From Alphaproteobacteria bacterium (lineage in GTDB: Bacteria > Pseudomonadota > Alphaproteobacteria > Bin95): a stretch of DNA of 64,000 bases. The notes under the pieces were generated by a model, which was not told where the DNA came from, did not search any database, and saw only the letters and a program-made list of their open reading frames with translations. Position numbers and translations under genes: made by a program. Shown piece by piece: positions 16,593-55,647 of the stretch. The stretch lies in the NCBI GenBank assembly GCA_965205265.1, contig CBDBGH010000001.1, positions 129,077-193,076 on the forward strand. The letters run 5' to 3'. Every line of letters starts with the position of its first letter. Positions within the stretch are counted from its first letter, which is position 1.

Positions 16593-16975
16593 CTCGGAAC
16601 TTCCTCTGTTGGGAGCTGTCCGGGGATCCGACCGTGGCGGCGGTGCGGGAAAGACGCGAATCCGCCGATTCCCTCCCTCACGCCGCCCGCATCCATCTGA
16701 TACCAAAACGCCGATGGTGCGCGCCCGCTGGCGCCATTTCCGGTGCGTTGTCTGAGGTCTGGATCCTCGGCCACCAGCTCTGTGGTGGATGGCACGGGGT
16801 CGCTCCCCGGCCCGACTTCACCGCCGGTCCGTGGGGCGACACCGCGTCTGGAGGCGGATCCACAGCCGCGGCCAGGTTGCCATAGCAAGGCCTCCGGCGT
16901 TGCCGGAGGAAACCCCTTGATCCCCGGGGATTTCGGCGCTAGCTTCGCAGCGCCATGGTTTTGAAGAGGATCATA

Positions 16976-23594: not shown

Positions 23595-23671
23595 CGGGTG
23601 TGGGCGTTCCGTTCGGGGGAAAAGCCGCCGCCAGCGGAGCGTCGGCGCGCGCCGTTCCGGTCCAGGTGTCC

Positions 23672-24031
23672 CTAGCCGAGATACTGGACGGCGGCGATGA
23701 TGCCCGCCAGAACGGTCATCCAGACGCCGAGACGCACAGTGACGGTGTTCGCCAGCGCGGCGATCTCCGTCCGGATTTCGGCTGCGACCCTGTCGATTTT
23801 CGCGTCCAGTCGGACCATTTCCTCCCGCAGCCCGGCGATGCTTCCGTCGAGGCGGTTCGCCTCCTGCGTGATCCGGGCATCGAGCGTGTTCCGCACCCGC
23901 TCGAGGTCGAAGGCTGTGGCGGCGGCGGGGCTGGCCGTCTCGACAACCGTCCCGCCGGTCCCGCGCTCCATCCCTTCGGTGGCGCTGCGGTCACGGGCCC
24001 TGTGGTTTTCAGTTTGGGCGACGTCAGCCAT
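23672..24031 (-). CDS. DUF1640/CCDC90-like coiled-coil protein with C-terminal membrane anchor
   Basis: AAGGA RBS; heptad coiled coil followed by TVRLGVWMTVLAGIIAAVQYLG. Confidence 0.7.
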   Translation of the reverse strand: MADVAQTENHRARDRSATEGMERGTGGTVVETASPAAATAFDLERVRNTLDARITQEANRLDGSIAGLREEMVRLDAKIDRVAAEIRTEIAALANTVTVRLGVWMTVLAGIIAAVQYLG

Positions 24032-24053
24032 GGTTCGGATTCCTTCACTGCGC

Positions 24054-24083
24054 ACTATAGCCCATTCCGGCTCGGAGACGCAA
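24054..24083 (-). promoter_or_regulatory. putative sigma70 promoter of the antisense gene
   Basis: TTGCGT-N18-TATAGT on the minus strand. Confidence 0.5.
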
Positions 24084-24112
24084 GCCCCGTCCGCCGCGGA
24101 TCCGGCCCGGTC

Positions 24113-24892
24113 GTGGTGGCCCTTGCGGCCGCCATGGCGCTATCGGCGGCCGCCGTGCATGCCCAGGGCATCGCCACACTCGGGCAGGAGGACGGCTTCC
24201 GTGCGCGTCTCGGTGACTGCCCGGTCGAGCAGCTCCGCGCGGCGTGGGGAGGGATGTCGACCCTGGAGGCCGCCGCCGTCGAGGCGGAGGTCCTGCGCCT
24301 GTGCACCGAGCGGGCGGAGGCGATCAACCGTTTCATCCGTTCGCAGGACGAGCTCGACGTCGCGATCGGGGGTCTCGTGGCCAGACAGGCCACAGCCAAG
24401 GCACCCCCCGCCGCCAGCGACATCCTGGCCAACCCACCGGTTGACCCGGACCCGGACCGGGCGGGTGATCGGATGCCCGCCAGGTCCCCGGATTTCCCGC
24501 CCCCCGCCGCCGACGGCGTCACCATGGCCGCCCCTCCCCCTGACCGGGGAACCCCCGTCTGGCTGGTCAGCTACACCGTGCAGGCGGGAGGCGGGCCGTG
24601 GCTCGCGATGCTCCGGGGAGAGACCTGCCGCACCATCACACTGCCACCCGCCGAACCCGGCGCTCCGGCGGAAGTCCGGACGCTGTGCGATCCCACCCAC
24701 GGACTTTACGGCGTCGGTGACCCGCTTCCCGACGGCTGGCGGGTCGGGAGGATCTCGGCGGAGTCGGTCGATCTGCGGCCGCCGGAGGGGCAGGGCGATG
24801 GCATGGAGCGCATCTCCTGGAGCCGGCCGGGGGACGGCAGCAGGGCCGCCGAGGTGACGTGGAACGCGGTGCCGGAGGAAGTGTGGCAATGA
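24113..24892 (+). CDS. exported pilus accessory protein (PilP-like)
   Basis: Signal AAAMALSAAAVHAQ; C-terminal VGDPLPDGWRVGRISAESV; precedes the ATPase. Start uncertain. Confidence 0.5.
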   Translation: MVALAAAMALSAAAVHAQGIATLGQEDGFRARLGDCPVEQLRAAWGGMSTLEAAAVEAEVLRLCTERAEAINRFIRSQDELDVAIGGLVARQATAKAPPAASDILANPPVDPDPDRAGDRMPARSPDFPPPAADGVTMAAPPPDRGTPVWLVSYTVQAGGGPWLAMLRGETCRTITLPPAEPGAPAEVRTLCDPTHGLYGVGDPLPDGWRVGRISAESVDLRPPEGQGDGMERISWSRPGDGSRAAEVTWNAVPEEVWQ

Positions 24893-26538
24893 GGGCCGCG
24901 GACCGGCGGCCGACCCCGATGCTGAAGCTGTTCGGGGCGCTGGCGCGGCGTATGGCCGGCGGACGCCGCGTCCAGCCGCCGTCGAACGACCGGGGCGTCC
25001 TGCTTGTCGGAAGCGAACGGTTCAGGGAGGCCTGCGCGCTGACCATCGACGGGGTCCACCACATCGTGCCCGAATACAACCTGCCCGGGCTCTGGCTGGA
25101 GATGGCGGAGATCGGCGAGCGCTACGAGCTGCCGGACTTCAAGGGCTACGCCCCGGCCACCCTTGCCGGCATCGCCGCCATGTACGGGCGCGACAGTTCC
25201 GGCAGGATCGCGACCGCCACAGGGCTCACCGACGGCGCCCGGCGCATGATGAGGGTCATCGACGAGGCGGCCGGGCTGCGGGCGAGCGACATCAAGATCT
25301 ATGTCCGGGCCAGCCACGCCGACCTTCGCCTGAAGCTCGGCCACGCGGAACACAGCCATGGGGCCCAGTGGCAGGTCGGGGAGGCCATGGAGGCCATCGC
25401 GTGGCTCTACGACCGCAGGGACTTCGGTGACGGCGCGAGCGCGCAGCAGCTCGGGCGGCATCAGGGATTCTCGATCGGCGCGGAGCGGCGCGTGCCGCTG
25501 CCGAGGTCCGTCGCGGCCCTGCGCGGGCAGCGCGGCTTCCACGGCGAGGGCCGGGACTTCATGGCCCTTCGCCTGATCTATCGGGAGGAGGACTGCGACG
25601 CGGGACGCATCGAGGATCTGGGCTTCGACGATGACGTCCTTGAGCAGCTCGCCGTCGAGCGCGCCAGTGACACCGGCCTTGTCATCATCGGCGGATCGAC
25701 GGGCGACGGCAAGTCCACCACCCTGGTCCGGGAACTCGAGAGGCTCTACCAGGAGCGGCAGGGGCGTGTCTCCATCGTCACGATCGAGGATCCGGTCGAG
25801 TATCCGGTGGCCGGTGCCGGAATCCTGCAGATTCCCGTGCCGGTGTCGGCGGCGGGGGGGCAGAGGACGGCGGCCTTCTCCGAGACGCTCCGCTGCTTCG
25901 TCCGGATCAACCCGGACATCGGAATGGTGTCGGAGGTCCGGTCGGCCGACGACGCCCGCGAGATCCTGCAGTTCGTGATCTCCGGCCACAAGATATTCAC
26001 CACGGTCCACTCCTTCAGCGCGAACGCGGTGCTGTTCAGGCTGGTCTCGCTCGGCGTGGATCCGAAGGAACTGGCCGAGCCGGGTGTCGTCAACCTCGTC
26101 ATGCGCCAGCGCCTCGTTCCCGTCCTGTGCCCCGGATGTGCCCGCCCGGCCGAAGGCGAGGCGCGCGAGAGCGTCGCCCAATGGACGGGCAATCCGTTCG
26201 GCCGCCCGATGGTCCGCCGCCGCGAGGGCTGCTCCGACTGCCTTGCGGGAAGGGCCAGCGAGACCGCCCGGGCCGCCTGGGGCGGGCTGTCGCGGAAGAG
26301 GGCGGTCGCCGAATTCATCAGGCCCGACGACCGCTACCGCGCCCTTGTCGAGGCCCGCGACCCGCGCGGCGCCTTCGCCTACTGGCTCACGCCGGAGTCC
26401 GACGGTGGTCTGGGCGGGCGTACGGTCGACGACCGCGTCCGGGACATGGTCGCCCGGGGGGAGGTCGATTTCGAGGCGGTGACGCATACCCACCTTTCCC
26501 GCCGGTCCGGCCCCTCCAGCGGGAGGGCGGCGGCATGA
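24889..26538 (+). CDS. pilQ: pilus assembly ATPase (PilQ/GspE family)
   Basis: ASDIKI, Walker A GSTGDGKST, TIEDPVEY, NPDIGMVSEVR, SGHKIFTTVH, CxxC motifs. Confidence 0.9.
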   Translation: MRAADRRPTPMLKLFGALARRMAGGRRVQPPSNDRGVLLVGSERFREACALTIDGVHHIVPEYNLPGLWLEMAEIGERYELPDFKGYAPATLAGIAAMYGRDSSGRIATATGLTDGARRMMRVIDEAAGLRASDIKIYVRASHADLRLKLGHAEHSHGAQWQVGEAMEAIAWLYDRRDFGDGASAQQLGRHQGFSIGAERRVPLPRSVAALRGQRGFHGEGRDFMALRLIYREEDCDAGRIEDLGFDDDVLEQLAVERASDTGLVIIGGSTGDGKSTTLVRELERLYQERQGRVSIVTIEDPVEYPVAGAGILQIPVPVSAAGGQRTAAFSETLRCFVRINPDIGMVSEVRSADDAREILQFVISGHKIFTTVHSFSANAVLFRLVSLGVDPKELAEPGVVNLVMRQRLVPVLCPGCARPAEGEARESVAQWTGNPFGRPMVRRREGCSDCLAGRASETARAAWGGLSRKRAVAEFIRPDDRYRALVEARDPRGAFAYWLTPESDGGLGGRTVDDRVRDMVARGEVDFEAVTHTHLSRRSGPSSGRAAA

Positions 26539-27710
26539 GCCGCCCGGTCACCTCCCTCCCCGCGCGGGCCGCCGCGGTGATCGAAGGTCTCCGCCGGATC
26601 GACGCGGCGCTCGGGTCGGCGCTGCGGGGAGCGGCCAGAGAGCCCGGCGCACCGCTCCATGGCCCGGCCCGTCTCTGGCGCAGGATCAGGTTCCCGAAGC
26701 GGGTCAGGGCCGAGACCTGGCAGATTCTCGCCGATGCCATGGCCGGAGGCTCCGACGCGGGCCGGATGATCGAGGCGCTCGCCGAGGGCTACCGGCTCTC
26801 CGGGCAGGGAGCGGTCGCCGATGTGCTCCTTGAGATACGGGTGGGGATCGGCGAGGCGCGGCTGTCCGAGCGGATGGAGCCGTATGTCGGCACGGCCGAG
26901 CGGCTGGTGTTCGAGGGTTTCGGCGCCCATGATCCGGCCAGGATTTGCGCCAGCGCGGCCCGGGTCCTCCGCATGGAACTGGCGTTCCGGAAAGCCGTGG
27001 GCGCCGCCGTGGCCCTTCCGGCCGTGCTGCTCGCGGGCCTGCTCGGCCTGTTCTACTTCTTCGGCCTCCAGCTGCTTCCCGCGCTGGAGGAACTGGTGGA
27101 CTTCGACCTGCTGCCCGGCTTTCCGGGCGCCGTCGTCGGCCTGGCGCTCGGGTTCGCCGAGCGACCGCTCGTTCCCGCGTTCGCCGTGGCGGGCGTCGTG
27201 GCGGCGGTCGCCCTGCTGATGCGGTACTGGACAGGGTTCGGCCGGCGGGTCGCTGACCGGTTCCCGCCGTTCTCGATGCAGCGGCTGCAGGCCGGGGCGG
27301 GCTTCCTGTTCGCCGTCACCGAATACGGCAGGTCCGGGCAGGCTGTCACGACCCGGGTGCTGGAGCGCATGGCGGCGGAGGCGCCGCCCTACGCGGCCTC
27401 CAGGATCCGCGCCCTTGCGGCGGAGTTCGTTCCGGCCGGCAGCAACCTCGGCGCCGCGGCGCTTCGGGCAGGGCAGGGGTTCCCGGCCGTCGAGCTCATG
27501 GCGGTGCTCCGGGCGCTGTGGAACGAACCTGACGGGATCCAGCGCTGCGGCGGTTTCATCGAGCGGTGGATGGAGCGCGTCGAGACGACGGTGCGGGCCC
27601 GTATGGCGGTCCTCAACGGCGTTCTGCTGACGGCCGTCGCCGTCGCCCTTCTCGCCCTCATGTCGATCGCCCTGCCGATCGTCGACCAGATCAGCCGGGG
27701 GACCCTCTGA
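26535..27710 (+). CDS. pilR: inner-membrane platform protein (PilR/GspF family)
   Basis: Three TM segments in GspF-like spacing; coupled to the ATPase. Confidence 0.75.
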   Translation: MSRPVTSLPARAAAVIEGLRRIDAALGSALRGAAREPGAPLHGPARLWRRIRFPKRVRAETWQILADAMAGGSDAGRMIEALAEGYRLSGQGAVADVLLEIRVGIGEARLSERMEPYVGTAERLVFEGFGAHDPARICASAARVLRMELAFRKAVGAAVALPAVLLAGLLGLFYFFGLQLLPALEELVDFDLLPGFPGAVVGLALGFAERPLVPAFAVAGVVAAVALLMRYWTGFGRRVADRFPPFSMQRLQAGAGFLFAVTEYGRSGQAVTTRVLERMAAEAPPYAASRIRALAAEFVPAGSNLGAAALRAGQGFPAVELMAVLRALWNEPDGIQRCGGFIERWMERVETTVRARMAVLNGVLLTAVAVALLALMSIALPIVDQISRGTL

Positions 27711-27749
27711 TGGGCCGCCCGCAGCCTAAACCGGAAAGGGAGTCTTTCA

Positions 27750-28376
27750 ATGCCTACACCCATCCTTAACCGCCTTGGCCGCGCGAGGGTCTCCGTCGTC
27801 CGCCTCCCCGGCCGTCCGTCACACCCCGCCCGGCTTCCCCGGCGGGCCCGTCGCGGTCTCATCAACGTGCTGCTGACGGTCGCGGTCATCGCCGCCGCGA
27901 TGATCGGCATCCTCGCCATATACAACCAGGTGAACACCTCGATATCGACCAGCTCGGTCCAGAACCTGGTGACCACGATGGAGGCCGAGATCCGGCGGGC
28001 CTACGCCAGCGCTCCGCAGTACACCGGCGACATCGACGAGTTCATCGAGGCCTCCCTGCCGTCCTCGGCCCTCAACGGCGAAGGCGCCGACCGCGAGATC
28101 GTCACGCCGTGGGGCGGCGCTGTCCAGGCTGGCGGCGGCACCACGCCCGGCACCGACACTGACAGCCCCAACAGGTTCTGGATCCTTGTGGCGGGCCTGC
28201 CGGAGCGGGCCTGCGAATCGCTGGCGAACGCGTTTCTCGACCTGAGCTCGGTCCAGGCGATCCAGACGGGCACCGGCCGGCGCGGCAACCTCGCCGCCCG
28301 GACCGATTCCGACGAGATCTCGGACGGATGTGCCGCTGCGGACAACAACCGTGTCGCGGTCATCTTCAGGGGCTGA
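27750..28376 (+). CDS. pilS: type IVb major prepilin (PilS-like)
   Basis: Long basic leader RRARRG/LINVLLTVAVIAAAM; TPWGG and GLPERAC motifs; C-terminal Cys pair. Confidence 0.75.
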   Translation: MPTPILNRLGRARVSVVRLPGRPSHPARLPRRARRGLINVLLTVAVIAAAMIGILAIYNQVNTSISTSSVQNLVTTMEAEIRRAYASAPQYTGDIDEFIEASLPSSALNGEGADREIVTPWGGAVQAGGGTTPGTDTDSPNRFWILVAGLPERACESLANAFLDLSSVQAIQTGTGRRGNLAARTDSDEISDGCAAADNNRVAVIFRG

Positions 28377-28381
28377 TACGG

Positions 28382-29035
28382 ATGCGCCGCCCCTGCGCCT
28401 GTCCGACGGCCGTGCGGGCCTCCCGCGCGCGGAGGGGCCTGGCGGCGCTGTCGGCGGTGGCGATGGTCACCGTCATCGCCGCGCTGGCGGTGGTGACCCT
28501 GCAGGTCCGGGAAGGCCGCGGCCGCATGGAGGGCCGGGCGTTCCTGGTCGCCGATGTCGCCGCCGCCGAGGGCCGGGCGCTGCATCACTGGCTCCATCAG
28601 GCGCAGGCCGGAGCGGCGTTCGCCCTGCCGGCGACCGGGTCGGCACGGCGGCTTTCCCCCGCCGAAACGGCAGCGGCGGAGGCCGATCCCTCCGGCGCTC
28701 CCTGGCGGACGCCTCCGCGTGGCTGGACAGCCATCCGGCTGGTCGCGACACCCTCCGGGCAGGGAGGGCCGGAACGCGCGTTCGGAATACTCGTTCTCCG
28801 GCCCGCCGCGCGGGTCACCGACCCTCAGCGGACCAAGGCCGTCTCGCGGCTGCGGGAAGCGGTGGACGGGGGCGCGGCCGCGCTGGCCGCGACGGTGCCT
28901 GGACTGGCGTTCAACGACGCCCGCGACATCGCGGTCTTCGCGCATCCCTTCTGGCAGCTGGACACCGGGTGGATCCTCAGGGAGCCGCGGTCGGGCCACC
29001 CGCCAGAGGCCATGGTCACCCGGGGCGTTCCGTGA
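28382..29035 (+). CDS. minor pilin-like protein
   Basis: RARRG/LAALSAVAMVTVIAALAVV class III signal-like N-terminus. Confidence 0.55.
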   Translation: MRRPCACPTAVRASRARRGLAALSAVAMVTVIAALAVVTLQVREGRGRMEGRAFLVADVAAAEGRALHHWLHQAQAGAAFALPATGSARRLSPAETAAAEADPSGAPWRTPPRGWTAIRLVATPSGQGGPERAFGILVLRPAARVTDPQRTKAVSRLREAVDGGAAALAATVPGLAFNDARDIAVFAHPFWQLDTGWILREPRSGHPPEAMVTRGVP

Positions 29036-29940
29036 GCCGCGCCGTCCGCCGCTCCCGCCGGGGTCTGGGCCTCGCCGAGGCGCTCCTTGCGGTCGCCGCG
29101 CTCACCGCGGCGGCATACTGGGGAACCGGGGTGCTCGGGGAAATGGCCGCCCGGCACCTTCTGGGGCGGGAGGCGCGCGCCGTCTCCGCCGCCGCGCTGG
29201 CCACCCGGCTGTGGGTCGAGGGCGATCCGGCGGCCAGGGCCCCGACGGGCCCCGCGCCAGTCGCGGTCACATTCGCGCAGCTGCGGACGGAGGGGCTCTG
29301 GGGCGTGGCCACGCCGGAGACCACACCGGGACGGCGGCGCGACATGACCATCTGGCTCTGGCGCCAGTCGGCGGCGCGGACGCTGGTGTTCGTCCGCGCC
29401 AGGGGAGAGGCGGCGAACATACCTCCGGGCATTCCCGGGGCTTCCGACAGTGCCGCCGCGGTCGGCGTGATTCCCGATGTGGCCGGTGAGACGGCCATCC
29501 GGGGGGCCGACGTTCTCTTCGACACGACCGATGTCGTTTCGGCGCCCGCGGGCTGGGCCGGGCGGGGAGACATGTTCGCGATCGAATCGGTCCGGACGGA
29601 TCCAGCGGGCTGCACCCCGTTCCTGCACCGCGAGCCGGTCCCCGGCTGCGCCGTCGCCAACACGATGGCGGCGGATTTCACGGTCGCCGGCGACTTCAGT
29701 TCCGACGGCGACCTCACGGTGGGCGGCGACGCGGGTGTCACCGGGGCGCTTGACGTCGCCGGTGGACTTACGGTCGACGGGGGGCTCCTTTCGACGTCGG
29801 CCAGCGAGGCCGTCGAGGTCCTGGCCAGCATGTCCGTCGGCCAGAACCTTGACGTGGCCGGCAGCCTCGTCGTCAGCGGCAGCATCACCGCGGCCAGCGT
29901 CTCGGCCGGTGGGTCGGTCGTCTGCACGGGTGGGGGCTAG
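29032..29940 (+). CDS. PilV-like minor pilin/adhesin
   Basis: RSRRG/LGLAEALL with Glu at +5; C-terminal repetitive G-D/x-L-T-V-x-G region. Confidence 0.65.
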   Translation: MSRAVRRSRRGLGLAEALLAVAALTAAAYWGTGVLGEMAARHLLGREARAVSAAALATRLWVEGDPAARAPTGPAPVAVTFAQLRTEGLWGVATPETTPGRRRDMTIWLWRQSAARTLVFVRARGEAANIPPGIPGASDSAAAVGVIPDVAGETAIRGADVLFDTTDVVSAPAGWAGRGDMFAIESVRTDPAGCTPFLHREPVPGCAVANTMAADFTVAGDFSSDGDLTVGGDAGVTGALDVAGGLTVDGGLLSTSASEAVEVLASMSVGQNLDVAGSLVVSGSITAASVSAGGSVVCTGGG

Positions 29941-29942
29941 CC

Positions 29943-30350
29943 GTGGCCGCGCGTCTCGCCATCGTTTCCCTTGCGGCGTTCGCCGCGCTGGCAGTCCCGG
30001 CGGCGGGAGACCGCCATGGTGCTCCCGTCGCCGGGGGAGGTTCGGTTGGGGCGTCGGAGGCGGGCCAGCGGGACGGGGTCGGGCCGGAGACCCGGAGGCT
30101 GGGCAGGGAGATCGCCCGGCTCAGGCGCGAGATCGCCGATCTCGAGCGTCTTGCGGTCTGGCAGCGTGAGCTGCTCAGGGCGGCGAAGAGCGATCCGCCG
30201 GCGGCGATGCGCCAGAGGCGTCCCATGGCGGACTGCCTTTCCTCGGCGTTCGCGCCGGTCTGCGACAGGCTCACGGCGATGTTCGCCCCGCCGGAACGGC
30301 CGCCGGTGATGGAAGGCCGGACGCCGGGTCTGGAGGCGGGACCGAGATGA
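29943..30350 (+). CDS. hypothetical exported coiled-coil protein
   Basis: Signal peptide, short coiled coil, Cys pair; within the operon. Confidence 0.5.
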   Translation: MAARLAIVSLAAFAALAVPAAGDRHGAPVAGGGSVGASEAGQRDGVGPETRRLGREIARLRREIADLERLAVWQRELLRAAKSDPPAAMRQRRPMADCLSSAFAPVCDRLTAMFAPPERPPVMEGRTPGLEAGPR

Positions 30351-30961
30351 CCGGACAGGTGGCCTTCCTCCTCGCCGCGGCTGTGGCGCTCTGCGCGGTG
30401 GCCCTCTCCATGGCGTCCATGGCGGCCGTCGCGTGCCGGGACATGCGGAGTTTCGAGATCGATCCCGACCCGCTTCTGGCCGCCACCCTTGCGGCCCTCG
30501 CGGCCGTCGCGGCGGCCGAGGGTCTCCACGGCCTGCCCGATTCGCTGCTTGCCGCCTCGGTCGGATGGGCCGCGGTCCGGGTTGTGGCCCGCCTGCTGCC
30601 CGGACGGATCGGACAGGGCGATGTATGGCTCTTCGCCGCCATGGGAGCCATCGCGGGAACCGGACTGCTGCCACTGCTTCTGGCCCTGTTCGCCGTCTTC
30701 GCGGTGGCTGCCGCCGCGGCGTACAGCTGGATGCGGGGCCGGAGGATGTTCCGCTCGATGGTTCCCGCGGCGCTGCCCGGAATGGCCGCCGCCGCCATCG
30801 TCCTGGCGCTGCGTGTCGGCGAGCCGCTCGTCCGGGGTGTCCCGCGCGACGCGGGGACCGCCCTGGCCGGCCCGAACGCCGTCTCCGTGCTGCTGCTGCT
30901 GACGGCATGGACCGTCGCGGCCCGCGCCGGCCTCGTGTCCCACCGGGGAGCGCGGCGATGA
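30347..30961 (+). CDS. prepilin peptidase (A24, PilU-like)
   Basis: RDMRSFEID and IGQGDVWL aspartate motifs; multiple TM helices. Confidence 0.75.
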   Translation: MTGQVAFLLAAAVALCAVALSMASMAAVACRDMRSFEIDPDPLLAATLAALAAVAAAEGLHGLPDSLLAASVGWAAVRVVARLLPGRIGQGDVWLFAAMGAIAGTGLLPLLLALFAVFAVAAAAAYSWMRGRRMFRSMVPAALPGMAAAAIVLALRVGEPLVRGVPRDAGTALAGPNAVSVLLLLTAWTVAARAGLVSHRGARR

Positions 30962-33126: not shown

Positions 33127-33249
33127 ATGCGGCTGCCTGACGCCATCCTCCTTCTCGCCATCGCGGCGCTGACGGTCTCGCTGGCGGTTCTGGGCGGCGA
33201 CAGGGGGCCGGCGGACCGCCCGCCGCCGCCGCCGGAGGAAAGCCGGTGA
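33127..33249 (+). CDS. small membrane peptide
   Basis: GGAGG RBS; 40 aa with one TM; GTGA coupling to trbB. Confidence 0.35.
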   Translation: MRLPDAILLLAIAALTVSLAVLGGDRGPADRPPPPPEESR

Positions 33250-34289
33250 GCATGGAGAAGGTACGGGAGCTTCTGGGACCGGTCGCGGCCCTGCTTGACG
33301 ACCCCGGCGTTGTCGAGATCGGCTGCAACCCCTCCCCCGATCCGAACCGCGGGACGCTTGACATGTTCGTGGAGCGGTTCGGCAGGTGCCCGGAACGCCT
33401 GGAGGGGATCGACAGGGCGGACACCGACCGCTTCGTCCGCTGGTGCGCGACCCATTCGAACGCCCGCATCGCCGCCGACCGTCCGATATTCTCGGGACGC
33501 ATTCCCGGGACGGCGCACCGCATCGAGGCGCTGTACCCTCCCGTCACCGACCAGCCCTGTTTCTCGATCCGCCGCCATACCGAACGGACGGTGACGCTGC
33601 GGGACTTCATTCCCCCGCTCCGCCGCAGGCGGCTGGTGGCGGAGGCGGTCGCGGCGCGCAGGAACATCCTGATCGCCGGGGCGACCGGTTCCGGAAAGAC
33701 GACATTCCTCAACGCCTGCCTGCTGGAGCTTGACCGGGTGGCCCCGGAGACGAGGCTTGTCGTGATCGAGGACACCACAGAGATACGCTCGCCCCTCGCC
33801 AACACGCTGCCGTTGCGGACGACGGAGACCGTCGGGATGGACCGGCTGCTGAAATCCGCGCTGCGGCTCGCTCCCGACCGGATCATCGTCGGCGAGGTGC
33901 GGGACGGCCAGGTTCTCATGACCCTGGTCAAGGCATGGAACACGGGGCATCCGGGCGGGCTGGCCACGCTCCACGCGAATTCGGCGTCGGAGGTCCTCGA
34001 CCGGCTGAGGTTGCTGGCGACCGAGGTCCTGGGCACCGACCCGACACCCGCCCTGCTGCGGACGACGGACATGGTCGTCTTCGTCGAGCGCGGCGCCGTC
34101 CGTCCCGTCGTCTCGTCCATCGCCTGGACCGTGCGACCGGACGGCGGCGCACCGCGGCTGGAAACACTCCCGAACGACCATACAGCCCGTCCGGTCAATG
34201 GCCACGCCACCCCGCTGGCCGGTGGCCAGCGGGGACGGATGGCGCGGGTGGAGGAACCCGTCGCCGCGGATGAAAGGAAGGAACCATGA
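33246..34289 (+). CDS. trbB: conjugative transfer ATPase TrbB/VirB11
   Basis: GATGSGKTT, IEDTTEI, LRLAPDRIIVGEVR, WNTGHPGGLATLHAN. Confidence 0.92.
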   Translation: MSMEKVRELLGPVAALLDDPGVVEIGCNPSPDPNRGTLDMFVERFGRCPERLEGIDRADTDRFVRWCATHSNARIAADRPIFSGRIPGTAHRIEALYPPVTDQPCFSIRRHTERTVTLRDFIPPLRRRRLVAEAVAARRNILIAGATGSGKTTFLNACLLELDRVAPETRLVVIEDTTEIRSPLANTLPLRTTETVGMDRLLKSALRLAPDRIIVGEVRDGQVLMTLVKAWNTGHPGGLATLHANSASEVLDRLRLLATEVLGTDPTPALLRTTDMVVFVERGAVRPVVSSIAWTVRPDGGAPRLETLPNDHTARPVNGHATPLAGGQRGRMARVEEPVAADERKEP

Positions 34290-34690: not shown

Positions 34691-35979
34691 TGCGCCCGGG
34701 CCGGCCCCTCCTCCAGCTGCTCGCCCTGCTGGCGATGTCCGCGGCGGTGGCCGCGCAGGAATCCCGGCCGCAGGGAATGGGGACGGACTTCCTGCCGGAT
34801 GTCGGTGACTCCGGTGAGGCGGCGCCGGAGGCGCCCGACCCCGCGTCCGCTGCTTCCGGTGAGGGCGGTGAGGGTACGGAGGAAACCCCGTCCGCCGCCG
34901 TCCTTCCCGACCGGCCCGAACCGCGGACCGCGCAGGGGGCGGAGTCGGCCGACCCGGACGACGGAACGCCGGACGATGGCGGCGGCGCCTCCCCCGACGC
35001 GTCGATCATCCCCGAACCTCCCCAGCGGCAGGCCCCGCTCGTCATGCTCTCGGAGCTGTGGCGGCAGGCCGTCGCCGCCGGTCGGACCGACTCCGGTTTC
35101 GAGACCTGGCTGGAGCGGGAGCTTGGCATGCGCAGGAGCCCCGCCGCGCCCGCCCCGTCCGGAGACCAGGCCGGACGGACGAGGGCCGTCGCGGCCGAGT
35201 GGGACAGGAGGGCGGGACCCGTGGCGCTCGGGGCCGCGGGGCGTGTGGTGACGACCTTCGGTGCGGCGATACCGCAGGCACTGTGCTCGCCCCTCACCGT
35301 CTGCTACATCGAGCTCGAGCCGGGAGAGGAACTGACCGACACGCCGAGCTGGGGCGACACCGCCAGATGGCAGGTGGTCGCCAAGGTCCAGGGCCGCGGC
35401 CCGGAAACCGTGGTGCTGGAAGTCAAGCCGGCGGAGGACGCGGGCCACACGAACCTCGTCATTCCGACGGACCGCCGCCTTTACACGATTTCCCTGGTCA
35501 ACGATCCGGACGTGCACACCCCGATCCTGTCGTTCAGGTATCCGGATTCGGCCGCAAGGGCCGCGGCGGCGGCCATCGAGGAACGCAGGAAGCGCGATGC
35601 GCAGGCGGCCGAGGCCGAGCAGGTCGCCGCCGCGGTGGCGCGGGCGGCCAGGCAGGCGAGGCTGGAGCGGGAGGGCCTGCCGACCGCCACGGGTCCGCGT
35701 CTGGTCGAGGATCTCGATTTCGGGTTCAGGATCGAGGGCAAGGCGCCGTTCCGCCCCGTCCGGGTGTTCGCCGACGGGCGGCGAACCTACATCGACCTCC
35801 ATCCGCGCTACAGGGGCACGCTCCCGGCGATCATTCCCGGCCCGGACGAGGAGAACCGGGCGCTCAACACCCGCGTGACGGACGAGGGCCGTCGGCTCGT
35901 CGCCGACCGGGTGATCACCGATGTCTGGCTTCAGGCGGGGCGGCAGCGTGTCCGTGTCCGCAGGGAGGTCCGGCGATGA
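34690..35979 (+). CDS. trbG: TrbG/VirB9 family protein
   Basis: CSPLTVCYIELEPGE, GDTARW, TNLVIPTDRRLY, PVRVFADGRRTYI. Confidence 0.9.
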   Translation: MRPGRPLLQLLALLAMSAAVAAQESRPQGMGTDFLPDVGDSGEAAPEAPDPASAASGEGGEGTEETPSAAVLPDRPEPRTAQGAESADPDDGTPDDGGGASPDASIIPEPPQRQAPLVMLSELWRQAVAAGRTDSGFETWLERELGMRRSPAAPAPSGDQAGRTRAVAAEWDRRAGPVALGAAGRVVTTFGAAIPQALCSPLTVCYIELEPGEELTDTPSWGDTARWQVVAKVQGRGPETVVLEVKPAEDAGHTNLVIPTDRRLYTISLVNDPDVHTPILSFRYPDSAARAAAAAIEERRKRDAQAAEAEQVAAAVARAARQARLEREGLPTATGPRLVEDLDFGFRIEGKAPFRPVRVFADGRRTYIDLHPRYRGTLPAIIPGPDEENRALNTRVTDEGRRLVADRVITDVWLQAGRQRVRVRREVRR

Positions 35980-36431
35980 GGTGGCGTCTGCCGCTCCTGT
36001 TCCTCATCCTTTTCCCCGGCTGCGGCGGGCTGTCAGGGACGTCGCTCACCGCGGCGGGCGACACGCGCCTGACCGAGGCGCAGGCCTGCGCCATCGGCTA
36101 CGATCTCGCCCGTGAGATGCACGGCAGGGTATCGATCGGGCGCACGGTTCTCGTCGCGCCGAAGCGGATGTCCTCCTGTGAGGGCCACGCCCTCGAATAC
36201 CTCCGTCGGGCCGGTTTCCGTATCGACGGCGCCGGACTTGGCGGAACGGAGTTCTGCATCCGGGTCACGGGAATTGACCGGGAGACGGTTTCGGCGGTGG
36301 CCGAGATCGGCGGCGACCTCCGCATCGCCCGGCCCTACCTGCCCGTACGCACCGGCGTCGTGCCCGTCGGGCCGGTCAGCGTGCAGCGGCTGTCCCCCGA
36401 CACCCATTCGACACGGGAGGGGTTCCGATGA
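35976..36431 (+). CDS. TrbH-like lipoprotein
   Basis: Lipobox-like ILFPGC; LEYLRRAGF; coupled after trbG. Confidence 0.55.
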   Translation: MRWRLPLLFLILFPGCGGLSGTSLTAAGDTRLTEAQACAIGYDLAREMHGRVSIGRTVLVAPKRMSSCEGHALEYLRRAGFRIDGAGLGGTEFCIRVTGIDRETVSAVAEIGGDLRIARPYLPVRTGVVPVGPVSVQRLSPDTHSTREGFR

Positions 36432-36465
36432 TGCCGATGATGCGGGCAACCGCCGCTGCCGGAAG

Positions 36466-36792
36466 TCACCTGTTCCGGGGCAGGCGTTCCTCCAGGATGG
36501 CCTCGATGCGTGCCTGTCCCTTCGCGAGTTCGGTGATCGCGGTGCGGTTCTCCCGGATCTCCTCGCGGAGTTCCTCGCGGAGGGAATCGATCTCCTCGCG
36601 TACGGAGCCGATCTCCTCGCGTACGGAGCCGATCTCGGCCCAGAGGAAGCTGGATGCCGCGATCCCCAGTGCGGTCAGTCCGCCGAACATCCACATGACC
36701 GTGGGCCTGTCGAAGCCCCTGAGGACGGCGAACTGCCTCTCCAGCCAAGCCATCTGCCGCGGGGTGAAGCCGTGATCCGTCAGGTCTGCCAT
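36466..36792 (-). CDS. membrane-anchored coiled-coil protein, paralog 1
   Basis: MADLTDHGFTP...DRPTVMWM-TM-EIGSVRE repeats...LAKGQARIEAILEERLPR. Confidence 0.75.
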   Translation of the reverse strand: MADLTDHGFTPRQMAWLERQFAVLRGFDRPTVMWMFGGLTALGIAASSFLWAEIGSVREEIGSVREEIDSLREELREEIRENRTAITELAKGQARIEAILEERLPRNR

Positions 36793-36920
36793 CCTTGCGT
36801 CTACCTGTCTTCGACGTGCGGGACCACATCCACCGTGTCCCTTTCGTCAATACACATACAGCGGCGACCTGCGCATTGCAAGCACATCAGGCGGGGTGTC
36901 CGCCCGGCGGATGCCCTCCG

Positions 36921-37226
36921 TCACCTGTTCCGGGGCAGGCGTTCCTCCAGGATGGCCTCGATGCGTGCCTGTCCCTTCGCGAGTTCGGCGATGGCGCCGC
37001 GGTTCTCCTGGATATCCTCGCGGAGTTCCTCGCGGAGGGAGCCGACCTCGCCGCGTACGGAGCCGATCTCGGCCCACAGGAAGCCGGCGGCGCCGATCCC
37101 AAGGGCCGTCAGGCCGCCGACCATCCACATGACCGTGGGCCTGTCGAAGCCCCGGAAGGCGGTGAAACGCCTGTCCAGCCACGCGATCTGCTGCGGGGTG
37201 AAGCCGTGATCCGCCACGTCAGCCAT
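36921..37226 (-). CDS. membrane-anchored coiled-coil protein, paralog 2
   Basis: Near-identical to paralog 1 with one fewer heptad. Confidence 0.75.
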   Translation of the reverse strand: MADVADHGFTPQQIAWLDRRFTAFRGFDRPTVMWMVGGLTALGIGAAGFLWAEIGSVRGEVGSLREELREDIQENRGAIAELAKGQARIEAILEERLPRNR

Positions 37227-37354
37227 CGTTCCGTCTCCCCGTTATCGCCGTGCGGGCCACCGCCCGCCGTTCCCTGTCCGGCACGGAAGGTATCACGGTG
37301 GTTTCCTTACCGCAGGCGTGTCAGGTCGCGCCTCCGCCGGGGGGCTTCCTTACG

Positions 37355-37714
37355 TCACCTTTCCCGAGGCAGGCGTTCCTCCAGGATGGCCTCGATGCGG
37401 GCAAGGCCCTTCGCGAGTTCGGTGATTGCGGCGCGGTTCTCCCGAACCTCATCGCGGAGGGAATCGATCTCGCCTCCGAGTTCCTCGCGGAGGAAGCCGA
37501 TCTCGCCGCGTACGGAGCCGATCTCGCCTCGGACCTCAACCCGGAGGGATTCGATCTCGGCCCACAGGAAGCCGGCGGCGCCGATCCCAATGGCCGTCAG
37601 GCCGCCAACCATCCACATGACCGTGGGCCTGTCGAAGCCCCTGAAGACGGCGAACCGCCTGTCCAGCCACCGGATCTGCTGGGGGGTGAAGCCATGATCC
37701 GCCACGTCGGCCAT
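37355..37714 (-). CDS. membrane-anchored coiled-coil protein, paralog 3
   Basis: GGGAGG RBS; near-identical to paralogs 1-2 with the longest coil. Confidence 0.75.
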   Translation of the reverse strand: MADVADHGFTPQQIRWLDRRFAVFRGFDRPTVMWMVGGLTAIGIGAAGFLWAEIESLRVEVRGEIGSVRGEIGFLREELGGEIDSLRDEVRENRAAITELAKGLARIEAILEERLPRER

Positions 37715-37833
37715 ACCTGCGCCTCCCTGTCTGCGTCGCGCGGGCCACCGCCCGCCGTTCCCGTACGTCATATATCGCGGCGGTCTCCCTATCGCAAGCG
37801 TGTCGGACCGCGCCTCCGCCGGGGGGCTGGCCG

Positions 37834-40194
37834 ATGACCCGTGTCCGACGCTTCGTCGATGTCCTGAACTGGACCGCGGTCGTGGCCCCGGGCGTCATCC
37901 TCTGCAAGGACGGCCGGCTGCTCGCCGGATGGCGGGTGACGGGCATCGACACCGAGAGCCTCGAGCCGGACGCCCTCGCCGGACGTCTGCGGCACCTGTC
38001 GTTCGCGCTCTCCGGTCTGGGGGACCCGCACACGCTCTGGAGCGTGTTCCGCCGCCGGTCGTGGTCGCGGGCGGACAGCGGCGGGACACTGCCGGAGACC
38101 GGCAACCCCGCGCTCGACGCTCTCGCCGTCGAGGCCAGCGCCCTGCTCGGGGCGCCCGGCGTGACCTGGACCGACACCCTCGACCTGTTCCTCTGCTGGA
38201 AGGGCCACGGCTCCCCGGATGGCCTGACGGGGCTCATCGGGGACTTCGAGGCCGAATGTTCCCGCACCGCCGCCCGGTTCGGATCGGTCATCGGCCTCTC
38301 GCGGCTGCTTCCTGACAGGGAGGGCCGCTGTTCGCTCTGCGCCGCCCTCGCCGACCTCCTGCTGCCGGGACGCACGGTGCCGCCGGTACGTGGCCATGCC
38401 CTGCCGCTGGGGATCGACGCGGTGGTCGGCGCGGACGTGGTCCAGCCATCCCGCTCCGGCCCGCTGCTGGTCGACGGCCGGCCAGCGGCGCTTCTGGCGG
38501 TGGACGGCCTGCCCGGGCAGTATCCGATCGCCCCGTTCGAGCATTTCCAGGACATCGCCCGGCCGTTCAGCTGGATCACGCGCTACGACGCGCTGTCGCC
38601 GGCGAGCACACGCAGGGTGGCCCGAACCATCCAGCGCTTCTGGCGCCAGTCGGCGGCGGACTTCGCGGCGGACCTCGCCGGAGAGGGCGGCGGGCGCAGG
38701 GGGCGCTTCGAGGACGCGATGGCCGAGGGCGTCGAGGCCACGATCGCCCGGGCCAGCCTCGGCGACGAGGGGCACGGGCGCTATCTCTCCCTGTTCCTGC
38801 TCCACGCGCCGGAGCCGGGCGGCGAGGACAGCCTCGCTAAGCTGACCGCCGCCATCATGGAGACGGCTGGCGACCGCCGGATCGTCCTGAGGGAGGAGCG
38901 GGGCAACGCAATTCCCGCGCTGCTCTCCGCGCTTCCCGGCCACTGCCGCGCCAACGCCCGCAATGTCGTGCTCCGCGCCCGGGCCATGGCGGACTTCATG
39001 CCCGTCCGGGGAACATGGCAGGGGATGGACCACTGCCCCTCCCCGCACCTTCCGGCGGGAACCCCGGCGCTGCTGCCGGCGCGGGCCCGGACCGGACAGG
39101 CGTTCCACTTCAACCTGCACCACGCGGAAGTGGGACACACACTCATATTCGGGCCCACCGGCGCCGGAAAATCCGTCCTTCTGGGCCTGCTGGCCTCCGC
39201 ATGGCTCCGGTATCCGGAGGCGCAGGTGATCTATTTCGACCGCCAGAGGTCGATCCGCCACGCCTGCAACGCGATCGGCGGACGGTTCCTGGAGCCCGGC
39301 GCCGGCGCCGGGGAGGGGATCGCGCCCCTGTCCCATGTCGCGGAGCTCGGCGCGGCATGGGCGTCCGACTGGTTGGCGGAGCTGGTGCGGCGCAGCGGCG
39401 TTGACCACTGCACGGCCGGGCAGGCCGCCGAGCTGCGGAACGCGGTGACCTCCCTGGGCCGCTCCCGCAGCCCGTGCCTTCGTGACGTCAGGGACTTCGT
39501 GCAGGACGAGGAGCTCCGCAGGGCGCTCGACACCTGGCTGGAGGGTCCGCATTCGGGTGTGTTCGACCAAGACGGGCTGGATCTCGGGGACGGCTCGCGC
39601 TCCGGCCCCGGCCACGCCTTCACCGTCTTCGAGACGCACCCGCTTCTTGAGGCCACCCCGACGGTCACCGTGCTGTCGCTCGACTACATCTTCGCCCAGG
39701 TGTCGCGGAGGTTCGACGGCAGGCCGACCCTGGTCGTGCTTGACGAGGCGTGGAGCTTCTTCGCGCACGGGATGTTCGAGGACAGGATCCGGAGCTGGCT
39801 CAAGGAAGGCCGCAAGAGCAATGTCGCGGTGGTCATGGCGACCCAGTCGGTGGCCGACGCGGCGGGTGCCCGGATCACGGTGGATCTGCTCGAGAGCTGT
39901 CCCACGAAGATATTCATGCCCAATCCCGAGGCGGAGACGTCGGTCTCCGCGCCGCATTACACGTCACTGGGCCTCGCGCCCTCCCAGACCGCGCTGGTCG
40001 CCGCCATCCAGCCGAAGCGGGATCTCTATGTCGTGCAGCCGGACGGACGCCGGGTCGTGAGCTTTCCGCTCGGACCGGCGGCGCTGTCGATCCTCGGCAG
40101 GACATCCGCCGGCGACAGTGCCCGCGCCGCCGAACGCGCCGCTGCGGACCCGGACTACTGGAAGGGGGACCTCTCCGATGCGCTTGCCGCCTGA
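37834..40194 (+). CDS. trbE: TrbE/VirB4 ATPase
   Basis: PGVILCKDG, VGHTLIFGPTGAGKS, LDEAW, MATQS, LLESCPTKIFMPN. Confidence 0.93.
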   Translation: MTRVRRFVDVLNWTAVVAPGVILCKDGRLLAGWRVTGIDTESLEPDALAGRLRHLSFALSGLGDPHTLWSVFRRRSWSRADSGGTLPETGNPALDALAVEASALLGAPGVTWTDTLDLFLCWKGHGSPDGLTGLIGDFEAECSRTAARFGSVIGLSRLLPDREGRCSLCAALADLLLPGRTVPPVRGHALPLGIDAVVGADVVQPSRSGPLLVDGRPAALLAVDGLPGQYPIAPFEHFQDIARPFSWITRYDALSPASTRRVARTIQRFWRQSAADFAADLAGEGGGRRGRFEDAMAEGVEATIARASLGDEGHGRYLSLFLLHAPEPGGEDSLAKLTAAIMETAGDRRIVLREERGNAIPALLSALPGHCRANARNVVLRARAMADFMPVRGTWQGMDHCPSPHLPAGTPALLPARARTGQAFHFNLHHAEVGHTLIFGPTGAGKSVLLGLLASAWLRYPEAQVIYFDRQRSIRHACNAIGGRFLEPGAGAGEGIAPLSHVAELGAAWASDWLAELVRRSGVDHCTAGQAAELRNAVTSLGRSRSPCLRDVRDFVQDEELRRALDTWLEGPHSGVFDQDGLDLGDGSRSGPGHAFTVFETHPLLEATPTVTVLSLDYIFAQVSRRFDGRPTLVVLDEAWSFFAHGMFEDRIRSWLKEGRKSNVAVVMATQSVADAAGARITVDLLESCPTKIFMPNPEAETSVSAPHYTSLGLAPSQTALVAAIQPKRDLYVVQPDGRRVVSFPLGPAALSILGRTSAGDSARAAERAAADPDYWKGDLSDALAA

Positions 40195-50883: not shown

Positions 50884-51363
50884 ATGCTGCCAAACTACAT
50901 ATCAATCCCCGGTGCGCCCTGGCCCGTTCTCACGCCTGGTGTCCATCCGGCGACGCTTGCCGAGATCGAGCGGCACTTCGCCTACAACTCCCGGCGACGG
51001 CAGCTGTTCCAGGGCCTGAAGGCCGCGGCAGCCAACCTCGCCCAGGCCGGATGCGGGGCGCTCTTCCTCGATGGCAGTTTTGTCACCGACAAGCCCATTC
51101 CCGGTGACTTCGATGCCTGTTGGGACCCGAAAGGTGTCTCACGACAAGAGCTGGACCCGGTCTTTTCCCGGTTTGCCAACCAACGCGAGGCACAGAGAAG
51201 GAGGTTCGGTGGCGAGTTCTTTCCGTCAACCACGCGCGCCGACGCACAGGACCGGACCTTCCTCGAGTTCTTCCAGATCGAGAGGTTCACCGGCCAATCC
51301 AAGGGGATCGTGCTGATCGACCTCAGCAATGAACCCATGCTCCAAACACAGGTGAAGTCATGA
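50884..51363 (+). CDS. DUF6932-like nucleotidyltransferase-fold protein
   Basis: LTPGVH...LDGSFVTDKPIPGDFD (GS...DxD), KGIVLIDL. Confidence 0.7.
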   Translation: MLPNYISIPGAPWPVLTPGVHPATLAEIERHFAYNSRRRQLFQGLKAAAANLAQAGCGALFLDGSFVTDKPIPGDFDACWDPKGVSRQELDPVFSRFANQREAQRRRFGGEFFPSTTRADAQDRTFLEFFQIERFTGQSKGIVLIDLSNEPMLQTQVKS

Positions 51364-52637
51364 TCCACAGCGACAGACAGCATCGCATCTCCAGCGGTGA
51401 ACTCGCCAAACTCAAGAGTGCCCTTGCCGCCACGGAGGCCCAACCCAGGGAAGAGGAGTGGCTTCAGGAAATCGAGGTCGCGGGCCTGAAAAGCCAGATC
51501 GCCGGAATCGAAGCCGATATCGCCCACTACGACATGCTCAAGGCAGGTGAGATCCCAGTTGCCAAATCTTTCTCGCTGACCGCGTTACCTGACGTCCTGA
51601 TCGAGGCGAGGATCGCTTCCGGCATGAGCCAGACCGATCTCGCGGACGCAATCGGTGTCCGCGCCCAGCAGATCCAGCGCTATGAGGCCTCCAACTACAT
51701 GGGAGCCAGTCTCGCGCGGCTGATCGAAATCTCAAAAGTGCTCAATGTCCACACCGTCGGCCTGTTCGAAACCGAGAGCCGACGCGAAGGGGCTGTCTAT
51801 GGCTGGGACGATGTCGATAACGTCTTCTGGCGGCAGATGCCCGCCCGCGAGATGGTGAAACGGAAATGGTTCGACGTCCCGCATGGGGCCGATCTGACCG
51901 AACGGATCAAGGCGTATTTCCTGGATGCCGCAGGGCCGCAGTTCGCGACCGCGCTGCATCGCAAGAAGATGCGCGGATCCACACTTCCCAACGAGCACTC
52001 CCTGCTCGCCTGGCAGGCCCGGGTGCTGGAGCGGGCCCGTGCGCATATCGAAGACGAGGATATCCCCGCATTTCGCCTGGACGATCGCTGGCTCCCGGAT
52101 CTCGCCCGGCTCACACGCCGAAAGGATGGCCCGAGGCGCACCCGTCAGCTCCTTGCCGAACATGGCATCGCGCTCGTCACCGAGGAACATCTGCCCGGTA
52201 CGTATCTGGACGGCGCGGCCATGTTGGGCAGCGGGGACCGGCCCGTGATCGGCCTTACCCTGCGTCACGACCGGCTCGACAACTTCTGGTTCGTCCTCTT
52301 CCACGAGATCGGACACATCTTCCTGCACCTCTCGGCCGGGATCCGGTACGATTTCTTCGATGACGGGGACTCCAGTACGGAGGACAGCGTTGAGACCGAG
52401 GCCGACCGGTTCGCGTTGGATAACCTGATTCCCGAGGGTCTCTGGGACCGGTGCCTGTCACGCTTCGCACTGTCGGAAAGGGCCGTTCAGATAGATGCGC
52501 GGCAGCTCGGTATCGATGCGAGCATCATCGCCGGACGCATCCGAAAGGAGCGGAACGACTACACCATCCTTAACGGGCTCGTCGGCTATCATAAGGTCCG
52601 TGCGCAGCTGAAGGAGGGATATGATGGTCCTGAGTGA
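51360..52637 (+). CDS. XRE HTH + ImmA/IrrE (M78) metallopeptidase protein
   Basis: ARIASGMSQTDLA...QQIQRYE HTH; TYLDGA, RHDRLDNFWFVLFHEIGH, ETEADRFA. Confidence 0.85.
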   Translation: MIHSDRQHRISSGELAKLKSALAATEAQPREEEWLQEIEVAGLKSQIAGIEADIAHYDMLKAGEIPVAKSFSLTALPDVLIEARIASGMSQTDLADAIGVRAQQIQRYEASNYMGASLARLIEISKVLNVHTVGLFETESRREGAVYGWDDVDNVFWRQMPAREMVKRKWFDVPHGADLTERIKAYFLDAAGPQFATALHRKKMRGSTLPNEHSLLAWQARVLERARAHIEDEDIPAFRLDDRWLPDLARLTRRKDGPRRTRQLLAEHGIALVTEEHLPGTYLDGAAMLGSGDRPVIGLTLRHDRLDNFWFVLFHEIGHIFLHLSAGIRYDFFDDGDSSTEDSVETEADRFALDNLIPEGLWDRCLSRFALSERAVQIDARQLGIDASIIAGRIRKERNDYTILNGLVGYHKVRAQLKEGYDGPE

Positions 52638-54948: not shown

Positions 54949-55554
54949 TTAAGGACTTGCCCGATGCCGTTTCATGATTTCAAGCACGGTGTTCTTGCTG
55001 ATTCCGAGGTCGTGCGCGATCCATCGGTAGCTCCGGCCCTCCCCGACGGCCCGGATGACCTTCGGCGCGAGCCTGTCCGATTTCGGTCTCTGCCCGGGCT
55101 GGCGACCGAGTTTCTTTCCCCGCGCCTTCGCCGCCGCCAGTCCTGACCTGACGCGCTCGCCCAGCAGGTCGCGCTCGAACTGCGCGATGCCCGCCAGCAT
55201 TGTGGCCATCATCCGTCCGTGCGGGGTGTCCAGTTCGAATGTCAGGCCGTGCATCGCGACCAGTGAGACATTCCAGCCCGATAGCATTTCCAGGGTGGCG
55301 AGCAGATCCCGGGTCGACCGCCCCCACCGGGAGAGCTCGGTCACGAGGATGGCGTCGATCCGGCGGGCCTGGGCAAGGTCGATCACCTGCCTGCGGAGGC
55401 GGCGGGAGGCCGAGGCTCCCGAAGCGGTTTCCTCGAAAACCCCGACAACCTCATAACCGCAGCGACGGGCGAATCCCTTCAGGTCGGCGACCTGCCGGTC
55501 GCAGCTCTGGTCGGCGGTCGAGACACGGGCGTAGATGGCGGCTGACCGTCCCAT
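54949..55554 (-). CDS. tnpR: serine resolvase
   Basis: YARVSTADQ, LSRWGRS, AQFER, C-terminal HTH. Confidence 0.92.
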   Translation of the reverse strand: MGRSAAIYARVSTADQSCDRQVADLKGFARRCGYEVVGVFEETASGASASRRLRRQVIDLAQARRIDAILVTELSRWGRSTRDLLATLEMLSGWNVSLVAMHGLTFELDTPHGRMMATMLAGIAQFERDLLGERVRSGLAAAKARGKKLGRQPGQRPKSDRLAPKVIRAVGEGRSYRWIAHDLGISKNTVLEIMKRHRASP

Positions 55555-55647
55555 TTGAACCCCACTGGATTTTCGGTGTGTAACCCATTGAAATCCATCA
55601 TAGGGCAACCGTCCCTGACAGACCACCCTTCAAGGAGGACAGACTGA

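Follow-up and report, generated by a model that had tools for sequence, protein, structure and literature searches.

A tandem array of antisense coiled-coil membrane protein genes among the transfer genes of an alphaproteobacterial plasmid-like sequence

We have analyzed a tandem array of three small paralogous genes in a 64,000-nucleotide stretch of alphaproteobacterial DNA from contig CBDBGH010000001.1 (the whole stretch is called the window here, and coordinates count from its first letter). The genes lie on the minus strand between plus-strand genes of a VirB/Trb-type type IV secretion system (T4SS), and each encodes a coiled-coil membrane protein of an unannotated family. An earlier reading, made from the sequence only, had proposed that the array might be an undescribed T4SS-linked system, acting in entry exclusion or immunity, as a ruler or adaptor for the channel, or by damping trb expression through convergent transcription. 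The explanation that we favour, with moderate confidence, is that each unit is a stand-alone accessory gene with its own promoter, encoding a bitopic protein with a probably trimeric stalk, the length of which would drift by repeat slippage while the conserved tip presumably contacts a partner encoded elsewhere, and that the genes are no part of the T4SS. The grounds include the scattered genomic contexts of the family, the conservation of the protein sequence and the local duplication of a compact DNA unit.

The array, its proteins and their family

Paralog 1 (36466..36792, minus strand, 108 aa) comprises a head, a transmembrane (TM) helix, a coiled coil encoded in part by a perfect 2 x 21-bp repeat, and a RIEAILEERLPR tail. 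Paralog 2 (36921..37226, minus strand, 101 aa) has the shortest coil of the three and paralog 3 (37355..37714, minus strand, 119 aa) the longest. The open reading frame (ORF) of paralog 3 can also be read from 37771, which would give a protein of 138 aa, but this reading is unlikely because the upstream ATG (37771-37769) falls within a putative -10 hexamer. Pairwise identity among the three proteins is 79-80%; head, TM helix and tail are conserved, and most of the differences are insertions or deletions of 4, 7 or 11 residues in the coil. The GC content at codon positions 1/2/3 is coding-like for each gene (0.64/0.46/0.86 for paralog 1, 0.70/0.48/0.88 for paralog 2 and 0.70/0.50/0.82 for paralog 3). 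ORFs, identity and third-position GC (GC3) thus agree with the original description of three antisense paralogs that share one architecture and differ mainly in the number of coil units.

The perfect 21-bp repeat noted earlier in paralog 1 is present in the sequence and was also called by Tandem Repeats Finder (TRF) as a heptad-sized tandem repeat at 36572..36636 (period 21, 3.1 copies), and the same program reports similar arrays at 37031-37071 and 37486-37534. The duplicated DNA unit consists of the whole gene together with ~130 nt upstream of it, and it recurs with a period of 434-488 bp. Eight copies, those of the window and of the related loci L003, L005 and L008 (described below), were compared by the Nei-Gojobori method. 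The ratio of nonsynonymous to synonymous divergence (dN/dS) was between 0.21 and 0.55 in all 28 of 28 pairs, which shows that the protein evolves under purifying selection; even locus L002, with its GC content of 40%, preserves the amino-acid sequence of the tail. Synonymous divergence among copies in one locus ranges from 0.17 to 0.33 in the window and amounts to 0.30 in L003 as well as in L005, compared with 0.5-1.1 between loci. Since copies in the same locus are each other's closest relatives, the arrays arise, or are homogenised, locally. In the mechanism that we propose, the three-gene array would have come from local tandem duplication of a self-contained ~0.45-kb unit of promoter and gene, and the length of the stalk would shift by slippage or unequal recombination between the 21-bp and related repeats.

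A search of 5.8 billion sequence clusters found 128 family proteins at E<=0.01. The family statistics given here were drawn from the best 120 of these 128 matches, which are 67-191 aa long; twelve of them carry a name, in each case 'hypothetical protein'. The tail motif occurs in 118 of the 120, and the part after the TM helix spans 33-103 residues (median 56), which bears out the suggestion that the stalk is expandable. Even the nearest relatives, P0002 (108 aa) and P0005 (105 aa), differ in repeat number. A profile search of 1.84 billion representatives returned 113 proteins at E<=0.001, of which 28 scored E<=1e-10 and 3 scored E<=1e-30. Loci with several copies seem to be frequent: L003 and L005 have two each, and 13 contig sizes recur in two or three family clusters, although contigs of equal size may be different ones.

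Scans of the paralogs against Pfam, NCBIfam, PHROGs and PADLOC yielded no applicable family and only weak coiled-coil noise. The ESM Atlas returned only unnamed clusters, among which a match to DUF7201 at 0.82-0.83 is a lead only, and tblastn of paralog 1 against the PLSDB plasmids gave no match at E<=1e-3. A single tblastn match of paralog 3 among phages (34% coverage, E 3e-3) was taken as noise. Apparent fused forms of the protein (P0134, P0150 and P0126) were set aside, as their ORFs seem to be frameshifted or mispredicted and have low-complexity extensions; a Pfam scan of P0134 and P0150 matched no family.

The AlphaFold2 model, built on a 47-row alignment, has a predicted local distance difference test score (pLDDT) of 89.5 and consists of a short helix (residues 11-26) and a single long helix (29-114) that would combine the TM segment and the coil. 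The TM helix, at about residues 33-52, lies N-terminal to the stalk. In the heptad EIGSVRE, as read from the sequence, the Ile takes position a, the Val position d, and the Arg/Glu pair positions e and g. A complex model of three copies scored 0.75, against 0.02 for the best of three controls; at least 96% of contacts were common to the runs, and the partner pLDDT was at least 84. In calibration the mark was reached by 20 of 30 solved same-chain pairs and by 1 of 23 single chains, figures that hold only roughly for three copies and a custom alignment. The modelled contacts join the same residue across chains (97-97, 100-100, 50-50) and therefore describe a parallel, in-register bundle. A trimer, which had been suggested earlier, is supported by this modelling, as a model. 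A Foldseek search against the Protein Data Bank (PDB) gave no match at E<=0.001, although a single long helix is uninformative in such a search.

The paralogs have neither a signal peptide nor a lipobox; the N-terminus reads MADVADHGF and the first hydrophobic segment begins at about residue 33. Across the 120 family proteins the N-terminal flank of the TM helix has a net charge of +0.78 and the C-terminal flank one of -1.26. Of these proteins, 54 have more K+R on the N side than on the C side, 18 have fewer and 48 have equal numbers. The head is thus probably cytoplasmic and the stalk periplasmic. Each gene would accordingly encode a small single-pass inner-membrane protein in which a short N-terminal helix (the head) precedes one TM helix. 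This helix would continue directly as the stalk, a coiled coil that is parallel and in register in the trimer model, is probably periplasmic and ends in the almost invariant tip RIEAILEERLPR. Our best guess for the role of the protein is that of a scaffold or spacer in the envelope, with the conserved tip displayed to a partner whose gene lies elsewhere.

Genomic contexts and expression signals

Contexts were counted for nine related loci from a genome collection (L001 to L009), or ten with the window. No T4SS or pilus gene lies nearby in six of the nine (L001, L002, L004, L006, L007 and L009). Five of these (L001, L002, L004, L006 and L009) have housekeeping surroundings, namely CinA/PgpA/IspDF, CitMHS/Fe-S/ArgS, CysS/RlaP, patatin/kinase and ABC transporter/OYE genes, and in L007 the copy adjoins a Fic protein and HipBA. 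The remaining three loci (L003, L005 and L008) have the same pilus/T4SS backbone as the window, with the copies in a different slot each time. In L005 they lie between the equivalents of window positions 20352 and 20946, a junction that is a 4-bp overlap in the window; in L003 they lie between the equivalents of 21110 and 25234, and in L008 the copy lies between those of 30299 and 32248. The window intervals that match these three slots contain no family copy. An all-vs-all comparison of the ORFs within 3 kb of the copies in the ten loci revealed no recurrent neighbour, the sole matches being the backbone homologues of L003 and L005. The unit would thus be accessory cargo that settles in intergenic gaps, both on chromosomes and in the plasmid lineage of the window, where it would take a different slot in each backbone and always stand antisense.

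Several details of these sites were recorded. The L003 slot also holds a helix-turn-helix (HTH)/MqsA-like antitoxin-type gene (5846-6181, plus strand) and an ankyrin-repeat gene (6713-7771, minus strand), and would seem to be a cargo-gene hot spot. In L005 (960-1100) the -35 region of a unit extends over the start of the coding sequence of a backbone gene on the opposite strand (a homologue of window 20832-23594), and this gene is left without a good in-frame start codon for its signal peptide. An empty site corresponding to the window array was not found: L008 ends before the junction, and the nearest TrbE in PLSDB is only ~31% identical. Terminal repeats, whether inverted or direct, were also looked for around the units, with no convincing result.

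These contexts bear directly on the proposal that the proteins are accessories of the plasmid T4SS or of its type IVb pilus, serving entry or surface exclusion, immunity or channel spacing by means of a membrane-anchored stalk. The array does stand between T4SS genes, three of the nine related loci have the same pilus/T4SS backbone, and the Pfam scan of the window recognised no TrbK-like gene whose place the array might take. Against this, T4SS and pilus genes are absent from the vicinity of the other six loci, the position differs in every backbone and no partner gene recurs. The paralogs are moreover unlike TrbK because they lack a signal peptide and a lipobox, and a ruler is disfavoured because stalk lengths vary both within one array, which has three, and across the family (33-103 residues). 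The homologue survey for T4SS linkage, which the sequence-only reading had called for, thus found a family that is scattered, largely as that reading had said would count against its own proposal. We regard an accessory role in transfer as unlikely, though it fares slightly better than the other alternatives considered below.

The claim that each unit has its own promoter stood in part. Promoter-like hexamer pairs are indeed found on the minus strand upstream of paralog 1 (TTGCAA-N17-TATGTG, 36853..36881), paralog 2 (CTGCGG-N17-TACCTT, 37287..37315) and paralog 3 (TTGCGA-N17-TATATG, 37769..37797), as read from the sequence. That of unit 2 is weak, and a generic sigma-70 scan did not support any of them. 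The pair of unit 3, divergent from virB4, has its end at a distance of 37 nt from the virB4 start codon, and repeat D3 (37759-37828), the upstream region of unit 3, comes as close as 6 nt to that start. In the nine loci outside the window there are seven matches to a conserved motif (CTTGC, 15-19 nt, ATAGNWTGR, then GGAGG), all of them directly upstream of family copies (7 of 11 copies) and none elsewhere; L008 has the motif with one mismatch. The window itself has no match to this motif. These results make separate transcription of the units plausible in the family as a whole and leave it unproven in the window. Recognition of the motif as an alphaproteobacterial heat-shock (RpoH) promoter was considered and dropped, because it departs from the consensus in its spacing and at two -10 positions.

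Translation starts also differ, with TTG in 8 of the 11 copies outside the window and ATG in the three copies within it. Compared with their relatives, the window units have ~25 extra nt in the 5' untranslated region (37250-37300 and 37730-37760, minus strand); part of this insertion is a GC-rich, palindrome-like segment (GGGCGGTGGCCCGC) with the potential to fold into a hairpin. An Rfam scan of 35500-38500 gave no match. At the other end of the array, no terminator-like site was found between paralog 1 and the lipoprotein gene, which converge with 34 nt between their stop codons. A 9-bp tandem repeat (CCGATGATG x 2.1) at 36425-36443 covers the stop codon of the lipoprotein gene (36431) and enters the 34-nt gap before the stop of paralog 1.

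Relation to known coiled-coil membrane proteins

The weaker matches of the profile search are coiled-coil membrane proteins with the same EIGSVR-type repeat, and several of them pass the Pfam CCDC90-like/DUF1640 model (PF07798; cut-off 33.5 bits), among them P0183 (52.8 bits), P0157 (45.8) and P0175 (45.2). This family comprises MCUR1, CCDC90B and their prokaryotic relatives, which, like the paralogs, are membrane-anchored coiled coils; the repeat module is also found in P0183 and P0193, both of which pass the cut-off, and the trimer model would be consistent with such a kinship. MCUR1/CCDC90B have reportedly been described, by Adlakha et al. in 2019, as a 'head-neck-stalk-anchor' trimer. With regard to the GF..Q.. 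helix motif expected in a DUF1640 head, hhalign aligned the family head to that of P0183 with a probability of 94% over 17 columns (a single comparison over a short segment), and the full-length alignment to P0162 reached 98%. In P0162 a DUF1640-like head precedes the TM helix and the coil, and the tail resembles that of the family. There is also a weak sequence match in the PDB to the coiled coil of CCDC90B (6h9m, E 0.0064).

Strict membership nevertheless fails. PF07798 is not listed for any of the three paralogs even at E<=1, and it matches one of 47 family members at E<=0.01. DUF1640 proteins have a C-terminal TM anchor, whereas in the paralogs the TM helix lies between head and stalk, and the RIEAILEERLPR tail is specific to the family of the paralogs. 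The beta-layer neck motif [aliphatic]-A-T-K-[polar]-[DE], which marks the start of the DUF1640 stalk according to PMC4786415, is present in P0183 and P0193 and absent from the three paralogs. The family is best described as a rearranged and remote variant of the DUF1640/CCDC90-like kind. In bacteria, DUF1640 genes are reported from remnants of prophages and from small plasmids (PMC5291501, PMC13516913), and PMC4428218 lists the domain in a table.

A fourth coiled-coil membrane gene, itself closer to the DUF1640 layout, is found antisense within the pilus operon of the window (23672..24031, minus strand, 119 aa, with coding-like GC3). Its protein begins with MADVA like the paralogs, and its coil precedes a TM helix at the C-terminus, in the tail-anchored arrangement of DUF1640 proteins. 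A promoter-like TTGCGT-N18-TATAGT lies upstream (24083-24054, minus strand). The sole homologue, P0231 (198 aa), is identical except for a 79-residue block of coil repeats, and it matches the C-terminal part of the CCDC90-like profile, with coil and anchor, at 25.7 bits, below the cut-off of 33.5. The slot of the fourth gene is the one that holds two family copies in L003. When its upstream region was aligned with those of the units, no clear homology was seen beyond the first five codons.

Other bitopic coiled-coil envelope proteins have a comparable architecture. Phage Rz-type i-spanins and the division proteins FtsB, FtsL and DivIC have the same N-proximal TM helix followed by a coiled coil of ~50-100 residues, and one family member, P0020, weakly matches the PHROG Rz-like spanin model (E 7.8e-5). 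The window paralogs, however, match no PHROG spanin model, and their surroundings contain no lysis cassette, o-spanin partner or division genes.

Weighing of the evidence, the rest of the window and significance

A number of points weigh against the explanation by stand-alone accessory genes. Four of the ten loci fall in one pilus/T4SS backbone, and the copies are antisense to the operon in four of these four; over all loci they are antisense to both neighbours in seven of ten, the exceptions being L006 and L007, where they point in the same direction as their neighbours, and L004, where the orientation is mixed. The antisense placement could therefore reflect a functional tie to the transfer genes instead of mere tolerance, and the window has, in the gene at 23672..24031, a second, related antisense coiled-coil gene in its pilus operon. 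The bias is suggestive and not significant, as four of four would occur by chance with p ~0.06-0.13. The picture of the contexts comes from nine related loci out of the whole family. The sigma-70 scan, which covered 35900-38100, found 0 sites where 0.1 were expected. The topology follows from a modest charge bias; the oligomer model covers three copies alone, and modelling of this type tends to favour coiled coils; and the hhalign E-values belong to single comparisons over short or repetitive segments.

The same orientations lend themselves to a reading in which transcription itself matters, the antisense, self-promoted units serving to dampen or split the transfer operons by convergent transcription or antisense RNA. 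The placement in the four backbone loci fits, as do the short gap of 34 nt between the convergent stops, with no terminator-like site, and the upstream region of unit 3 that abuts the virB4 start. Purifying selection on the protein argues in the other direction, as does a tail conserved as amino acids even in L002, and the chromosomal copies stand among unrelated genes; in view of the chance probability of the orientations as well, we consider this reading improbable.

Equally doubtful is a bolder view that would draw these threads together. The ~0.45-kb unit would be a new minimal hitchhiking cassette, lacking transposase and terminal repeats, that repeatedly colonises the intergenic junctions of conjugation and pilus operons in antisense orientation, amplifies in tandem and modulates transfer through convergent transcription or through an action of its length-variable trimeric stalk on the envelope-spanning machines; the tail-anchored gene of the pilus operon would then be a second member of the regulon.

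The least probable of the alternatives is an addiction-type or toxin-type membrane module laid out like ldr/rdl or hok/sok. The E. coli LDR (ldr/rdl) is a tandem array of self-promoted units of ~0.5 kb, each with a small single-TM protein, and the tandem ~0.45-kb units described here, each with a promoter-like site and a single-TM protein, are comparable in layout; the TTG starts of most copies outside the window and the toxin-antitoxin-type genes that adjoin copies in L003 (HTH/MqsA-like) and L007 (HipBA) are in keeping with such a module. The paralogs, however, are three times longer than the LDR proteins, having 101-119 aa with a long charged and conserved coiled coil and a conserved tip, in contrast to hydrophobic toxins of <60 aa, and there was no Rfam match in 35500-38500; no antisense RNA promoter was identified, although a novel antisense RNA is conceivable.

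The surroundings of the array confirm part of its placement. The array was said to lie between trbH and trbE. On the right, the gene at 37834-40194 (plus strand) encodes a VirB4/TrbE ATPase by Pfam, and its PLSDB matches are annotated TrbE (~31% identity for the nearest), so trbE is confirmed. On the left, the gene at 35976-36431 (plus strand), convergent with paralog 1, encodes a lipoprotein with the lipobox LFPGC and has no Pfam match, and the label trbH was not confirmed. The T4SS begins before these with a VirB11 gene (33246-34289) and a CagX/VirB9 domain (end at 35979), and continues after VirB4/TrbE with TrbL, VirB8, TrbI/VirB10 and VirD4.

By its gene content and the Pfam scan the window is plasmid-like. 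It carries a RepC gene (15177-16706, minus strand), a staphylococcal-type nuclease gene and an R64-like type IVb (thin) pilus operon (~17109-30961, plus strand) with LysM lipoprotein, secretin, T2SSE ATPase, PilS/bundlin-type pilin and A24 peptidase genes. The pilus operon thus stands directly upstream of the VirB/Trb-type T4SS, both on one RepC plasmid. A large Fic-domain protein is encoded at 8674-10815 (plus strand), and a stretch of 323 aa of it is 83% identical in L007 (1-2127), where the counterpart lies upstream of HTH-HipA and the family copy. At 51360-53724 (plus strand) a gene with HTH_3 and Peptidase_M78 domains (ImmA/IrrE-like) is followed by a 'Beta_protein' gene (PF14350, E 7e-77), and the two may form a defence or regulatory pair. 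Mobile elements are represented by an IS110-family transposase (12398-13345, minus strand), a resolvase and complete Tn3-family transposase (54949-58551), and a second, partial Tn3 transposase near the window end (63103-63936).

The analysis defines an unannotated protein family of at least ~128 sequence clusters, with a head, a TM helix, a repeat-tunable stalk that is modelled as a trimer, and an almost invariant tip, and it connects this family to the poorly understood prokaryotic DUF1640/CCDC90-like proteins. The tempting but unsupported reading of the array as a new T4SS exclusion or ruler system is removed. Small, self-promoted cargo genes can, it appears, occupy antisense positions in conjugation and pilus operons, in a slot that differs from one related plasmid to the next; this is relevant to the ways in which transfer operons put up with inserted genes or are tuned by them.

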